64,000 bases of DNA, taken from sequence record LR877332. The stretch is one strand, 5' to 3'. Position 1 is the first letter of the stretch; each line of letters begins with the position of its first letter. Of this stretch, positions 3,179 through 47,858 are shown one piece after another. The DNA is from Shigella phage vB_SsoM_JK08. Made by a program: the position numbers and the translations under genes. Below the pieces are notes generated by a model, which worked only from the letters and a program-made list of their open reading frames with translations, made no database searches and was not told the origin of the DNA.

Positions 3179-3335
3179 CAGTTTTGTGAAAAAATTTTTA
3201 GGGAATTCTAGGGCAGGGATGGGCAATTAAAGGATAGGATAATATATTATAAAGGGTATAAACTAAATGATGCCTAGAGAGGTCCAGAAAGGCCTAGATA
3301 CCAAAAAGCCCTATCATTTAGATAGGGATTTAAAA

Positions 3336-3899
3336 TTATTTACCTAGTTTACTTATTATAGCTTCTGCAGCAGCTTTTAGCTTAGATGCAGTGTTAATAC
3401 GATTTTTAATTTCAGTATACGCATCGCCAAGAACATCAAGGCTATCAGAATAAACACTTACACTATTGCGTTCGCTATTTGAAATAGAACCTTTAGTTTT
3501 GCGGTCAAAATCGGTGTACACGTCTTGAAGATCGCGGGCTGCCTTCTTTGCATCATCCAATGCATCAAGAGCTTTATTCAAAGCATTAACGTATTTTTTA
3601 GTGTCGAACATATTCTTAGAAATTTTAACAGGTGCGCGTTCAGGAGTAGCTAACACAGATTTAGGAACCTGAGCGCCAGATGCCAATTTCTTAGAAATTT
3701 TGAAAAATGCTTTATTGAATTTATTTTCTTGACTCATTGTAAAAGAACTATTATCGATGTTGTACATTTCAATAGCTTTAGCTTTCCACTTAAGAAAATC
3801 GCCGCGGTCTTTTGGGTCCAATTGGAAGAATACTTTAGTAAGATCTGCTTCAGATGGTAATTTTGCTGCTTCGGTTAAAAATTCGGCATAGGTTTTCAT
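3336..3899 (-). CDS. internal-protein-like capsid-targeted protein
   Basis: 187 aa; N-terminus MKTYAEFLTEA matches the T4 internal protein capsid-targeting sequence MKTYQEFIAEA, with a protease-type LTE site. Confidence 0.6.
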   Translation of the reverse strand: MKTYAEFLTEAAKLPSEADLTKVFFQLDPKDRGDFLKWKAKAIEMYNIDNSSFTMSQENKFNKAFFKISKKLASGAQVPKSVLATPERAPVKISKNMFDTKKYVNALNKALDALDDAKKAARDLQDVYTDFDRKTKGSISNSERNSVSVYSDSLDVLGDAYTEIKNRINTASKLKAAAEAIISKLGK

Positions 3900-4024: not shown

Positions 4025-4498
4025 TCATTTGATTTGTTTAGCAGACCAAATGCGGTCTTTAATAATTTTTTGGATGTCTTCAACATACTCAAGAGAGTGA
4101 ACATGTGGATTATCTTTGAAACTATAAGCACGGGCTAACTTTTGGCCTTCGGTTTTGATTACTAAAAGCTCTTTAAGGATAGCTTCATATTTGGAGATAA
4201 TTCCTTTAACAATATTTTTCTCTTGTGTGACTTTAGGATCTTCTTTAGGAGCAGGTTTACCTGAAGCCTTTGCAAAAGCAGCTCCAGTAGCAACTAAACT
4301 TTTCCAAGCCATACTAACTGCATTCCCTGTAAATCCTTCGGCTTTCATATCACGAGCAAATTGGAATCGTGATTCATCGGAAGCATCTTTATAGGAATAT
4401 TTACCCGCGGCAATGGCAGCTTTTGCAACAGCTTGAATTTCAGTGCTAGATGCTTCATTTAACACCGCTTCATTTAAAAATTGAGTATATGATTTCAT
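4025..4498 (-). CDS. internal-protein-like capsid-targeted protein
   Basis: 157 aa; N-terminus MKSYTQFLNEA resembles the capsid-targeting sequence; late promoter TATAAATA directly upstream. Confidence 0.6.
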   Translation of the reverse strand: MKSYTQFLNEAVLNEASSTEIQAVAKAAIAAGKYSYKDASDESRFQFARDMKAEGFTGNAVSMAWKSLVATGAAFAKASGKPAPKEDPKVTQEKNIVKGIISKYEAILKELLVIKTEGQKLARAYSFKDNPHVHSLEYVEDIQKIIKDRIWSAKQIK

Positions 4499-4534
4499 CT
4501 TATTTCCTGTTTTAATTCGGGGTTTTAATATACT

Positions 4535-4542
4535 TATTTATA
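4535..4542 (-). promoter_or_regulatory. T4-type late promoter TATAAATA
   Basis: Exact TATAAATA on minus strand about 37 nt upstream of ATG 4498. Confidence 0.55.
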
Positions 4543-4544
4543 CT

Positions 4545-4571
4545 AAAAAGCCCCAACCTTTCGGTCGGGGC
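4545..4571 (-). terminator. rho-independent terminator after tRNA/stable RNA cluster
   Basis: Same hairpin sequence as at 3990-4016, followed by U-run on minus strand. Confidence 0.6.
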
Positions 4572-4625
4572 TAAGCCTTGCGGCAACCTTGTCGGGGTTC
4601 CACCTTCTAAGGCAAGTGTTTGTAC

Positions 4626-4780
4626 GAAACGCCGGGATTCGAACCCGGTTATTAAGCAGTTGACGCTACTCAATATTTTTAAAAGGCCATATCTCGACCA
4701 TATCCGAACGTTCCGTCAAAAACGCTACTCGGCTTACGGCAAAGATATTTCCTCGAATCGATAATTCGGTGCGCCGTTTC
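4626..4780 (-). ncRNA. tRNA-like stable RNA (T4 species 1/2 RNA-like)
   Basis: 3' part folds as T-arm (CCGGG TTCGAAT CCCGG) closed by GAAACG/CGTTTC acceptor-like helix enclosing about 150 nt; lies just downstream of tRNA-Arg as in T4. Confidence 0.35.
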
Positions 4781-4888
4781 TGCTGTGATATAAGGGGACA
4801 TTAACAAAACATAAAGATTTATTAATACCAGTCCTTAAACAGGGAACATCAGTCCGACGACTTGCCGGTAGCGACCCGGCTTCTTGTC

Positions 4889-43280: not shown

Positions 43281-43482
43281 TTTTCACCTTTTTATTGATA
43301 TGTCTTTTTCTATAGACGACTTTTTCTCGAGTTTCAAATTTATTCTTAGCAGTCATAGCTCGAGCCCATAATACAGCCACTTCTTTTGCCTGTAAGTTTA
43401 ATTCACGAGCAATTTCAATGAATGACTTTCCAGACTCATGAAGCGTAAACACCACAACCTCAGTTCTCATAATTAATCTCAT
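43267..43482 (-). CDS. 24.3: hypothetical protein (24.3-like)
   Basis: 71 aa ORF at the T4 24.3 position, overlaps 24.2 start. Confidence 0.6.
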   Translation of the reverse strand: MRLIMRTEVVVFTLHESGKSFIEIARELNLQAKEVAVLWARAMTAKNKFETREKVVYRKRHINKKVKNGTV

Positions 43483-43549
43483 GTTATCGAGTTGGTGCCA
43501 TTATATACATCATTTTCTGATTGTGTTTTGCGTGCTTTCAAAATGAAGA

Positions 43550-43567
43550 AAGGGGCCGAAGCCCCTT
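43550..43567 (-). terminator. rho-independent terminator after hoc
   Basis: Hairpin AAGGGGCTTCGGCCCCTT followed on the minus strand by a T-rich tract. Confidence 0.55.
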
Positions 43568-43571
43568 ATGA

Positions 43572-44990
43572 TTATGGATAGGTATAGATGATACCAGTTT
43601 CTAAAGCAGTTTTATGAATGATGTATCCATTACGCGATTCTTGGACATCAACTTCTGGATAGTCTTTAATCATCTTCTGAAGAGTGTAACGATGCAGGTA
43701 GTATTTACTATCTGGGTCGTCAGTTTTCCAATCTTTACCTTCTTCGGTCATTTTTTGGATTTCATCCATAACCCACCAACCGCACCAGATATAAGCTGAA
43801 GTACGATGTGGAAGAGGATGAACATAAGGTAGTTCACCTTCTGGTTCTGGAGCAACTTTATCAGTTACCTGAACTTGACCTTCTGCTGTAATAGTTTTGC
43901 TATCGTAATCAGTTGCAGTAACGACAGCAGTAACTTCAATAGTTTGACTTCCAACAGATGAGGTATCGACAGTATATACGTTAGTTGACCCTTCTACAGG
44001 AGAAGAATCTTTCTTCCATGAGTAAGTAATTTGTGCTTCTTCTGGAGCACCCGTAACATTAGCCGTAAATGTAGCCGAAGCATCTTGCTGAACGTTAATA
44101 GAAGGAGGAGTCAATGTAACCTGTGGATTCATTGTTTTCTTATTAACAGTCAATGATACTTCATTAGAAGTAACTTCCTTTTCATTGTAATTTTCTGCAG
44201 TTACTTGCGCTACACACTTAACTGTTTTAGCTCCAACTGTGGTAGGAGTATAGTTAAATGTAGTAGTAGTTTCTCCATCGACCAGAGAACCGTCAACATA
44301 CCACTGATACGTAGCAGACGCTCCTGGTGGCTGTGAATCCAAGGCAGCAGTAAATTGAACTGGGGTTCCAATTACTCCGGCAGCAGGATTAGCAGGAGTT
44401 ACGGCTAACGTAGTCGTCTGCGTCTTTTTATTAACAGTCAATGATACTTCATTAGAAGTAACGCTTAGTGCATCATAATCTGCCGCAGTTACTTGAGCTA
44501 CACACTTGATTTTTTTAACTCCGCTTGTGTCAGGAGTGTAATTGAATGTAGCGTCAGTTGCTTCGTCTACAGGAGAACCGTCAACGTGCCATTGATACGT
44601 AGCGTTTGCACCTGATGGCTGTGAAGCTAAGGCAGCGGTAAATTCAATTGGAGTTCCAATCACTCCAGCATCAGGGCTACCAGGAGTTACAGCTAAAGTA
44701 GTTGTTTGTGTCTTATTTTGAACTGTGATAGTTGTACTAATTTCTGCTGTTTCAGGTTCAGATTCTGCAACTTGATTGGTTGCAACTACTTTAATAGTCT
44801 TTTGACCGGCAGGTCCTTTTAGTACATAACTAAAAGTTGCTGACGTTTCTTCCTGTGGAGCGTCGTCTACAGTCCAAGCATATGTAATAGGTCCATCTCC
44901 AGTTTGACCACTGGGTGTAGCAGTAAACTGCTGAGTCTGATCTATAACTCCAGTAGGTGTTTTAGGAGTTATATCAACTGTAAAAGTCAT
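43572..44990 (-). CDS. hoc: Hoc outer capsid decoration protein, enlarged
   Basis: 472 aa (T4 376); tandem Ig-like modules with recurring motifs (ATYQWxVDGSxVD); conserved C-terminal capsid-binding segment. Confidence 0.85.
   Translation of the reverse strand: MTFTVDITPKTPTGVIDQTQQFTATPSGQTGDGPITYAWTVDDAPQEETSATFSYVLKGPAGQKTIKVVATNQVAESEPETAEISTTITVQNKTQTTTLAVTPGSPDAGVIGTPIEFTAALASQPSGANATYQWHVDGSPVDEATDATFNYTPDTSGVKKIKCVAQVTAADYDALSVTSNEVSLTVNKKTQTTTLAVTPANPAAGVIGTPVQFTAALDSQPPGASATYQWYVDGSLVDGETTTTFNYTPTTVGAKTVKCVAQVTAENYNEKEVTSNEVSLTVNKKTMNPQVTLTPPSINVQQDASATFTANVTGAPEEAQITYSWKKDSSPVEGSTNVYTVDTSSVGSQTIEVTAVVTATDYDSKTITAEGQVQVTDKVAPEPEGELPYVHPLPHRTSAYIWCGWWVMDEIQKMTEEGKDWKTDDPDSKYYLHRYTLQKMIKDYPEVDVQESRNGYIIHKTALETGIIYTYP
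44140..44715 (-). repeat. internal tandem duplication of an Ig-like domain within hoc
   Basis: Two adjacent blocks of about 95 codons nearly identical at protein level and sharing long identical nucleotide runs (for example TTATTAACAGTCAATGATACTTCATTAGAAGTAAC twice). Confidence 0.7.
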
Positions 44991-44999
44991 AAGTTATCC

Positions 45000-45680
45000 T
45001 TATTTTAATGTTACGAAAGAAGAGTTGCGTGTTTCACGAATTAAAACTGATCCGTCACGGTTAATGTAATAAATTAAGCTAAATAAAGTTTGGTGTGCTG
45101 ACGCATGTTCAAAACTAGTTGGGTGAGATTTCCAATCAGGAGTTTCAGCAATCCATTGATAAATCCACCAAGGAACAGTACAGAATCCTGGATTTTTTCC
45201 AATCAACTGAAGATTCGGGCTAAAGTTTTCCGGAAGAGTAAATACAGACGGCTTTTCAGATTCAATAATCTCAGCTACAGCTTGTTCAAACTTTTCTTCA
45301 ACAAACGGAGTGTCTTCAATCAAAACTGAGGTATTTTCAGAAATTTTATCCGTTTCTACTACTTCAATTTTAATGTCAGATTTAACCGGAGAATCAATCA
45401 AAAGTGCTGCTTCTGGATTGACTTCTTCATCGTCATATTTTAATCCCTCTGCGGCATCAGCAGCATCAATTAAGTCTTTAATAGATAACCCATCAGTCTC
45501 CGGCATAGGTTCACTAGCGAGCTTCTGGAGGGCTTCTTCAATATCAACAACGATATTATCAAAAGATTTATTCTTTTTGACCTTTATACCAAACTGTTCA
45601 GCATATTCAGCTAATTTAGCTTTAGCTTCTTTATTATCATCAAGAGCCTTCAGCTCTGCAATATAATCTTTATCTATCAT
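45000..45680 (-). CDS. inh: Inh inhibitor of prohead protease
   Basis: 226 aa, same length and position as T4 Inh. Confidence 0.8.
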   Translation of the reverse strand: MIDKDYIAELKALDDNKEAKAKLAEYAEQFGIKVKKNKSFDNIVVDIEEALQKLASEPMPETDGLSIKDLIDAADAAEGLKYDDEEVNPEAALLIDSPVKSDIKIEVVETDKISENTSVLIEDTPFVEEKFEQAVAEIIESEKPSVFTLPENFSPNLQLIGKNPGFCTVPWWIYQWIAETPDWKSHPTSFEHASAHQTLFSLIYYINRDGSVLIRETRNSSFVTLK

Positions 45681-45729
45681 AATATTTCCTCAGTATAAAT
45701 ATAGATATATTTATTACTCGGAAAATAGT

Positions 45730-46347
45730 ATGTACCACTTTGTATATGAAACAACAAATCTAATAAATGGTAAAAAGTATATAGGAAAACACTCTACTGA
45801 TGACTTGAATGATGGTTACCTTGGTTCCGGTAAGGCAATTCAGCAGGCTATAAAGAAATATGGTGAAAACAATTTCTCTAGAACAATACTAAAAGAGTTT
45901 AAAACTTCTGAAGAAGCGTACATGTATGAAGAAGAAATTATAACTCCTGAACTAATAAAAAGCAAAAATTATTATAATATGAAACCTGGTGGAATTGGTG
46001 GAATTGTTATGACTACAGAGGTTATAGCAAAGATGAAAGAATCTTCCGCTAAAAGATTTGAAAACTCACCAGGCACGGTATTAGGTAAAACTTGTTACAC
46101 TAATGGAACTAAAAATATTTTTATTAAACCTGGAGAACTTGTTCCAGAAGGATTTGTAAAAGGGATGGTTCATCCTAATAGAAAGTCCAGAAAAGGATGT
46201 AAAGTCAAACCGACTACCACAGGAACTTTTTGGGTCAATAATGGCGCAATAAATAAATTAATACAACCAGACGGTATTATTCCCGACGGATTTATTAAAG
46301 GTCGTCTCATGAAAAGAGATTCTAAAGGCAAATTTAGTAAGGCATAA
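45730..46347 (+). CDS. segE: GIY-YIG homing endonuclease SegE-like
   Basis: N-terminal GIY-YIG module (HFVYETTNLINGKKYIGKHS...GYLGSG); between inh and uvsW as T4 segE. Confidence 0.8.
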   Translation: MYHFVYETTNLINGKKYIGKHSTDDLNDGYLGSGKAIQQAIKKYGENNFSRTILKEFKTSEEAYMYEEEIITPELIKSKNYYNMKPGGIGGIVMTTEVIAKMKESSAKRFENSPGTVLGKTCYTNGTKNIFIKPGELVPEGFVKGMVHPNRKSRKGCKVKPTTTGTFWVNNGAINKLIQPDGIIPDGFIKGRLMKRDSKGKFSKA

Positions 46348-46349
46348 TT

Positions 46350-47858
46350 ATGGATATTAAAGTACATTTTCACGACTTCAGTCATGTACGCATCGATTGT
46401 GAAGAGAGCACATTCCACGAATTAAGAGATTTCTTTTCGTTTGAGGCCGATGGATATAGATTTAATCCTCGCTTCAGATATGGCAACTGGGATGGACGAA
46501 TCCGTCTGTTAGATTATAATCGCCTTCTTCCATTCGGCTTAGTCGGGCAAATTAAAAAGTTCTGTGATAACTTTGGCTATAAAGCCTGGATTGACCCACA
46601 GATTAACGAAAAAGAAGAATTATCAAGAAAAGATTTTGATGAATGGCTTTCTAAATTAGAAATCTATTCAGGAAATAAAAGAATTGAACCGCATTGGTAT
46701 CAAAAAGATGCAGTGTTCGAAGGATTAGTTAATCGTCGTAGAATTCTTAATCTTCCAACATCCGCTGGTAAATCGTTAATTCAAGCTTTGCTTGCGCGAT
46801 ATTATTTGGAAAATTATGAAGGTAAAATTCTTATCATTGTTCCAACAACTGCTCTAACAACTCAGATGGCTGATGACTTCGTTGACTATCGTTTATTCAG
46901 TCATGCAATGATAAAGAAAATTGGTGGCGGAGCATCAAAAGATGATAAATATAAAAATGATGCACCAGTCGTTGTTGGTACATGGCAAACTGTAGTAAAA
47001 CAACCGAAAGAATGGTTCTCACAGTTTGGAATGATGATGAATGATGAATGCCATCTTGCTACAGGAAAAAGTATTTCATCCATCATATCAGGTTTAAATA
47101 ACTGCATGTTCAAATTCGGTTTGTCTGGTTCATTACGTGATGGCAAAGCTAATATCATGCAGTATGTTGGAATGTTCGGTGAAATATTTAAGCCAGTAAC
47201 GACCTCTAAATTAATGGAAGATGGACAAGTAACTGAGTTAAAAATTAATAGTATTTTTCTTCGCTATCCCGATGAGTTCACTACTAAATTAAAGGGAAAA
47301 ACTTACCAAGAAGAAATAAAAATTATTACTGGGCTTAGTAAAAGAAATAAATGGATCGCTAAATTAGCTATTAAGCTTGCACAAAAAGATGAAAACGCTT
47401 TTGTCATGTTTAAACACGTATCGCACGGTAAAGCTATTTTCGATTTAATTAAAAATGAATACGATAAAGTTTATTACGTATCAGGGGAAGTTGATACCGA
47501 AACCCGCAATATAATGAAAACCTTAGCTGAAAACGGTAAAGGAATAATTATAGTAGCTAGTTATGGTGTATTTTCTACTGGTATTTCAGTTAAAAATCTG
47601 CATCACGTTGTTTTAGCACACGGTGTTAAATCTAAAATTATTGTATTGCAAACAATAGGTCGCGTATTACGTAAACATGGTTCTAAAACAATCGCAACAG
47701 TCTGGGACCTCATAGATGACTGTGGTGTCAAGCCAAAATCTGCTAATACTAAAAAGAAATATGTTCACTTGAACTATCTTTTAAAACACGGCATTGATCG
47801 TATTCAGCGCTACGCAGATGAAAAATTTAATTACGTAATGAAAACAGTTAATTTATAA
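46350..47858 (+). CDS. uvsW: UvsW DNA helicase
   Basis: 502 aa; helicase motifs (PTSAGKS Walker A, DECH box); matches T4 uvsW. Confidence 0.9.
   Translation: MDIKVHFHDFSHVRIDCEESTFHELRDFFSFEADGYRFNPRFRYGNWDGRIRLLDYNRLLPFGLVGQIKKFCDNFGYKAWIDPQINEKEELSRKDFDEWLSKLEIYSGNKRIEPHWYQKDAVFEGLVNRRRILNLPTSAGKSLIQALLARYYLENYEGKILIIVPTTALTTQMADDFVDYRLFSHAMIKKIGGGASKDDKYKNDAPVVVGTWQTVVKQPKEWFSQFGMMMNDECHLATGKSISSIISGLNNCMFKFGLSGSLRDGKANIMQYVGMFGEIFKPVTTSKLMEDGQVTELKINSIFLRYPDEFTTKLKGKTYQEEIKIITGLSKRNKWIAKLAIKLAQKDENAFVMFKHVSHGKAIFDLIKNEYDKVYYVSGEVDTETRNIMKTLAENGKGIIIVASYGVFSTGISVKNLHHVVLAHGVKSKIIVLQTIGRVLRKHGSKTIATVWDLIDDCGVKPKSANTKKKYVHLNYLLKHGIDRIQRYADEKFNYVMKTVNL

Follow-up and report, generated by a model that had tools for sequence, protein, structure and literature searches.

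Results

The hoc locus

The window, a stretch of 64,000 nucleotides from Shigella phage vB_SsoM_JK08 (LR877332), carries on its minus strand a gene that, judged by homology and genomic setting, is the hoc gene of a T4-type (Tequatrovirus) phage (Table 1). Hoc is a non-essential decoration fibre that stands in one copy at the centre of each gp23 hexamer in the T4-type capsid. A phmmer comparison of the window protein with T4 Hoc (PDB 5vf3_Z, 376 aa) returned an E-value of 5.4e-210, with homology over the whole length including the C-terminal domain. Window residues 1-190 and 273-472 pair with T4 residues 1-190 and 177-376, the two stretches being collinear, and exactly one module is skipped. 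The original prediction that Hoc measures 472 aa here against 376 aa in T4 is thereby borne out. In nucleotide sequence the gene and its homologue in Escherichia phage U115 are 99.2% identical, and 678 phage records contain a match to the window gene, nearly all of them from Tequatrovirus.

Genes are arranged in the order gp24, rnlB, 24.2, 24.3, hoc, inh, (segE), uvsW, as read from the window ORFs and from the annotated loci of U115, fPS-65 and T4. In this late head-gene region hoc is flanked by 24.3 and inh (hoc.1), with the same ORF order as in T4, U115 and fPS-65. Upstream of hoc and in the same orientation, inh stops 9 nt short of it, a layout from which we infer that the two genes would be co-transcribed. 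At the other end of hoc, the predicted hairpin terminator corresponds in position to annotated terminators of fPS-65 and vB_EcoM-G28. A scan of positions 43300-45800 for sigma-70 promoters returned fewer sites than shuffled sequences did, and no perfect T4 late-promoter motif (TATAAATA) was found on the hoc strand upstream of inh. This motif is enriched in the window as a whole (23 observed vs 9.7 expected), and one perfect copy at 45694-45701 on the plus strand, just upstream of a segE-like ORF, faces segE and uvsW. A 61-aa ORF on the plus strand (43614-43799) lies wholly within hoc. Broken hoc genes in some deposited phages fit the non-essentiality of Hoc; those of MZ501066.1 (FriedrichMiescher) and P0119 (BYEP02) are consistent with dispensability in laboratory propagation, or with sequencing errors.

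Table 1. Features of the hoc locus, with window coordinates and the evidence for each.
Feature	Position	Strand	Evidence
hoc CDS, 472 aa + stop	43572..44990	-	ORF list; stop codon 43572-43574
Ig-like domain D1 (aa 1-93), distal fibre tip	44712..44990	-	module split and translation; AlphaFold2 beta-sandwich, pLDDT ~90
Repeat module A (aa 94-189), first D2-type Ig/PKD-like module	44424..44711	-	tandem repeat; Pfam PKD, BiPBP_C, Ig_2
Repeat module B (aa 190-285), second D2-type Ig/PKD-like module	44136..44423	-	tandem repeat; best Pfam PKD stretch aa 196-265
Ig-like domain D3 (aa 286-378)	43857..44135	-	Pfam Ig_3 and I-set at aa 289-373; AlphaFold2 beta-sandwich
C-terminal capsid-binding domain (aa 379-472)	43575..43856	-	aligns with T4 Hoc 281-376
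35-nt exact repeat, 3' end of module A (GTTACTTCTAATGAAGTATCATTGACTGTTAATAA)	44428..44462	-	twin in module B
35-nt exact repeat, second copy, 3' end of module B	44140..44174	-	identical to the module A copy
inh (hoc.1), prohead protease inhibitor	45000..45680	-	ORF list; annotated in U115, fPS-65, T4
Hairpin terminator, AAGGGGCTTCGGCCCCTT then T-run	43550..43567	-	directly after hoc stop

Domain architecture and capsid-binding residues

Several lines of evidence place an N-terminal string of Ig-like beta-sandwich domains in the window protein. Pfam returned PKD, Ig_3, Ig_2 and I-set matches over residues 100-373. The AlphaFold2 model, built from a 30-sequence alignment, contains four beta-sandwich modules with a pLDDT of ~90 over residues 1-378, followed by an alpha/beta C-terminal domain of low confidence; at a pTM of 0.53, the inter-domain geometry of this model is not reliable. 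Searched with Foldseek, the model matched strings of Ig domains (Dscam, ICAM-5 D1-D4, NCAM) and the Hoc protein of RB49 (3shs). Like T4 Hoc, the protein is acidic, with a pI of 4.45 overall and of 4.05-4.55 for single modules. Its D1 is identical to that of U115 (100% nt) and 85% identical to that of T4, and its D3 is nearly identical to T4 D3.

The residues by which T4 Hoc contacts gp23 are Y293, H295, R300, W309, W310, D313 and E355-S-R-N-G359 (Fokine et al. 2023, PMC10385173). All of them are present in the window protein with an offset of +96 (Y389, H391, R396, W405, W406, D409 and E451-G455). They are also invariant in the 30-sequence alignment.

The segment that has no partner in T4 Hoc belongs to a tandem repeat. 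A repeat search detected a 288-nt unit twice, at 44134-44421 and 44422-44709, with 78% identity, and TRF reported 44140-44714 with a period of 288 and 79% matches. The two modules, A and B, agree at 225 of 288 nucleotides (78.1%) and at 71 of 96 amino acids (74%), and their codons show 23 synonymous and 25 non-synonymous differences. The differences cluster at module residues 11-14, 22-23, 33-36, 42-54, 61-68 and 77-83, which probably form loops. Since D1 and D3 are only 29-35% identical to A or B, these two modules are each other's closest paralogues. The extra length of Hoc had been ascribed to one added Ig-like module paralogous to its neighbour, and the Pfam matches, the AlphaFold2 model, the T4 alignment and the module comparison all agree with this. 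As to the modules themselves, the claim of two adjacent units of about 95 residues holds in size and arrangement (96 aa and 288 nt each, in tandem), and fails where it calls them nearly identical. Nor does the DNA share the long identical runs that had been described: only two exact runs of at least 12 nt exist, the longest of 35 nt and the next of 13 nt.

Module number varies among Tequatrovirus phages

Comparison of Hoc length across related phages returned forms of 376, 472, 568 and 664 aa, which correspond to Tequatrovirus hoc genes with 1, 2, 3 or 4 D2-type modules; in the protein database we found relatives of 376, 472 and 567-570 aa. Genes with more than one module were counted with a 42-aa peptide that spans the module-module junction (E <= 1e-5) and that the single-module proteins of T4, T2 and fPS-65 match only partially. 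A full match, indicating at least two modules, was present in 245 phage records, or ~36-41% of the 594-678 records with hoc, and an even sample of the similarity ranking agreed with this, containing 22 long and 28 short hoc genes.

Clustering of 156 modules from 113 cluster representatives sorted them into three main types, namely A, B and the T4-like type T, which includes a subtype T'. Their arrangements were T (59), A-T (24), A (12), B (6), A-T-B (4), A-T-T (3), A-B (3) and T-B (1). Wherever types are combined in these 113 classified representatives, A comes before T and B, and T before B; the census of module order drew on the 120 proteins that top the similarity ranking to the window protein and is biased accordingly, and it was spot-checked with 8 further loci.

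Among the closest known systems, T4 Hoc (PDB 5vf3 chain Z, 8t1x) is encoded by the same gene at the same locus and in the same orientation. It lacks the additional 96-aa D2-type module that gives the 472-aa window protein four Ig-like domains, and its only D2 module belongs to type T and includes an A-like patch (DYDALSV). RB30 Hoc (AY101183, AAM52483.1) also has 472 aa and carries two tandem 288-nt modules in the same position, and its depositors annotated five domains and noted that an 'intragenic repeat led to appearance of additional immunoglobulin-like domain'. The two genes are 88.9% identical overall at the nucleotide level; RB30 is A-T, its module 2 being 89% identical to T4 D2, whereas the window is A-B, the rarer arrangement. 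U115 shares the A-B arrangement. The Hoc proteins of EC101, ESh36 and UGKSEcP1 are A-T'-B (568 aa); their A and B modules are 97-100% identical to those of the window, and the number of modules differs. The four-Ig Hoc is thus a common allele that is annotated in GenBank and already known in substance. A literature search returned no specific paper on the RB30 repeat, nor on module order or polarity.

Escherichia phage slur03 (LN881728.1; locus excerpt 221-2215) has a 1995-nt hoc gene whose 664-aa product contains four D2-type modules arranged A-T-T'-B, compared with A-B in the window; this is the longest Tequatrovirus form that we found. Escherichia phage moskry (MN850651.1), filed as Mosigvirus, encodes a 472-aa A-T Hoc that is very Tequatrovirus-like, with a 'repeat_region' annotated over the modules, which suggests that hoc has moved between genera or that the genus assignment of this phage is questionable.

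Direction of change in the module array

Three-module genes allow the direction of change to be approached. From module A to the stop codon, U115 hoc equals the EC101 three-module gene minus one in-register 288-nt unit, with 0 mismatches over 1140 nt, and the deletion starts at offset 249-272 of EC101 module 1, within the conserved 3' boundary that contains the 35-nt repeat stretch. For the same interval of the window, the best fit is EC101 minus 288 nt from offset 297-302, which is 9-14 nt into module 2. Seven mismatches remain, all of them in a C-terminal patch at 43632-43719. Apart from this patch, only five nucleotides near the A|B junction (44415-44439) distinguish the window from U115, as would be expected if the crossover had fallen at different points in the two genes.

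Module B of the window differs from EC101 module B at just two sites, gene positions 570 and 576 (window 44421 and 44415; G at both). Both variants are synonymous, and both carry the state of the EC101 middle module (module 2). The most parsimonious recent event in the window lineage would therefore be the shortening of a three-module allele by one module, rather than a gain, although this reading of the window rests on the two diagnostic synonymous nucleotides (44421, 44415), and a short gene-conversion patch at A|B would look the same.

Related events appear to have left traces elsewhere. The sole module of fPS-65 (locus excerpt 3280-3567) is of A type over its first 20 nt and of B type thereafter, and the first module of U115 (locus excerpt 4280-4855) ends with the 3' variants of the EC101 middle module. 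Both features mark separate deletions of 288 nt that had their crossovers at different points. Across 55 unique single modules, 14 are chimeras that begin as A and continue as another type, and one has the reverse polarity; a predominance of A-then-other is the outcome expected if deletions join the start of an upstream A to the remainder of a module further downstream. Internal patches of A type occur in 13 of the 55, and four modules are mosaic several times over. Modules or alleles therefore also exchange sequence by gene conversion, and deletions in tidy succession do not account for the whole history.

The C-terminal patch at 43632-43719 holds seven differences from both U115 and EC101 within 88 nt, the rest of the 3' half of hoc being identical. 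It changes E424D and M441I, D424 being the T4 state, and it looks like a small recombination patch.

An alternative route to a two-module allele is unequal exchange between an A-bearing and a B-bearing gene during mixed infection, which would make the window form a gain and not a loss from a three-module gene. The necessary partners exist, since 12 and 6 of the 113 classified cluster representatives are single-module A and B alleles, respectively. T4-type phages recombine freely, and the window is itself mosaic, with a segE insertion and its T4-like flanks set in a U115-like background. However, the first 9 nt of module B carry two T' variants and not the B or A states, which would not be expected from the plain joining of an A to a B module. 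Moreover, many single-module alleles are A-to-B or A-to-T chimeras, and the supposed donors would thus themselves derive from arrays. We regard this route as improbable, and loss from a three-module array remains our preferred reading.

Age of the A and B modules

The original prediction had explained the additional domain by a recent in-gene duplication. By the method of Nei and Gojobori, dS between A and B is 0.64 and dN is 0.165. The non-repeated parts of the window gene differ from T4 hoc by a dS of 0.18-0.32, and each module differs from its counterparts in other phages by a dS of at most 0.06 to 0.12. Module A is 100% and 99.7% identical at the nucleotide level to module 1 of 3 in EC101 and UGKSEcP1, respectively; for module B the corresponding values are 99.3% with module 3 of 3 in EC101 and 98.6% with the sole module of Yersinia phage fPS-65. 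Such near-identical counterparts at the same relative position elsewhere, together with a dS of 0.64, indicate that the duplication behind A and B is old. On this sequence evidence the two modules are old paralogues that predate the diversification of the sampled hoc alleles.

It follows that a recent in-gene tandem duplication, by which a T4-like three-Ig Hoc would have become a four-Ig Hoc in this lineage, is very hard to maintain. Its appeal lies in the geometry of the repeat, because the modules are tandem, in frame, exactly 288 nt long and each other's closest paralogues. A duplication of that kind should leave near-identical copies with little synonymous divergence that are absent from close relatives, and none of this was found. 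Instead, A and B are more divergent at synonymous sites than the window and T4 are outside the repeat, each copy has a 99-100% identical counterpart at the same relative position in other phages, the multi-module form is common to ~245 records, and the junction bears the signature of a lost middle module. We rejected the proposal on the strength of the dS values and the orthologous modules in other phages, and the claim of recency falls with it.

Expansion of the repeat by the assembler, giving a wrong module count, can be dismissed as practically excluded: nothing speaks for it beyond the general risk with tandem repeats. Between the two copies there are 63 mismatches in 288 positions and no identical run longer than 35 bases, so that ordinary read lengths cannot collapse or expand them. 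In addition, the reading frame is unbroken, AlphaFold2 folds each of the four modules with confidence, the 1419-nt gene recurs at 95-99% identity in many independent genomes, and the same architecture is present in hundreds of independently assembled genomes.

Discussion

Our analysis makes it likely that the window gene encodes a Hoc fibre whose D2 array, one of a family with 1-4 modules in fixed order, is changed by unequal recombination, and that the window allele is most simply read as a contracted A-T'-B gene. According to this model, the D2 position in Tequatrovirus would be a short array of one to four 288-nt modules that run in the order A, then T or T', then B. Homologous recombination is frequent in T4-type phages during replication and mixed infection. 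Conserved module boundaries, including the 35-nt stretch that is identical in A and B of the window, could serve as the crossover substrate, and unequal, in-register homologous recombination between them would add or remove whole modules while leaving the reading frame and the Ig fold intact. The window allele would then be an EC101-like A-T'-B gene that lost one 288-nt unit through a crossover 9-14 nt into T' and B.

A wider proposal is that D2 is, in general, an ordered cassette array (A, T, T', B) of 1-4 modules that is repeatedly reshaped by in-register unequal crossover at conserved boundaries, with many three-Ig Hocs as well as the window form being contractions, and that fibre length and adhesive repertoire are thereby a rapidly tunable trait at the population level. 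We put this forward tentatively, as something a little short of an even prospect.

T4 Hoc forms 155 acidic fibres of ~180 A that promote dispersion and weak adhesion to bacterial surfaces and to mucin glycans (PMC10385173, PMC9958956). With four Ig-like domains instead of three, the acidic fibre of the window phage would be expected to reach ~40-45 A beyond the ~180 A of T4, which is longer by roughly a quarter, and to present an additional variable face through which it could adhere weakly to the bacterial surface or to mucin glycans. The anchoring to the capsid should stay unchanged.

Variation in the number of Ig-like domains is itself published, with Hoc homologues reported to contain 1 to 10 of them (Fokine et al. 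2023, PMC10385173). Because the window form is also a common, annotated allele, the feature is real but ordinary. The Ig strings compared in that study, together with RB49 Hoc (PDB 3shs), span distant genera, whereas the case described here concerns variation among close alleles of one genus within one defined module family. What is mildly new is only the ordered module array and the evidence pointing to a repeated origin of shorter forms by deletion.

The alleles nevertheless have uses beyond their own history. T4 nanoparticle vaccines use Hoc as their main display platform, and Hoc is also the proposed mucus-adherence factor of T4-type therapeutic phages. These roles give the natural allele series some practical relevance: forms with 1-4 modules are a ready-made set for the effects of fibre length and module type on adhesion, dispersion and immunogenicity. 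The array is, in addition, a small and clean example of a change in domain number by unequal crossover, and it cautions against reading 'longer than T4' as 'derived from T4'.

Beyond inh, the window contains an insertion of ~635 bp (45718-46352) relative to U115, fPS-65 and UGKSEcP1. Within it, a 205-aa ORF on the plus strand (45730-46347) is 99% identical at the nucleotide level to the homing endonuclease annotated in the inh(hoc.1)-uvsW spacer of T4, the segE position; segE encodes a GIY-YIG homing endonuclease (PMC2330249). Positions 45450-46500 of the window are 99-100% identical to T4, whereas the D1 region of hoc (44700-45000) is 100% U115-like and only 82-89% T4-like. From its sequence, the insertion looks like homing of segE, with a short co-conversion tract, into a U115-like genome.
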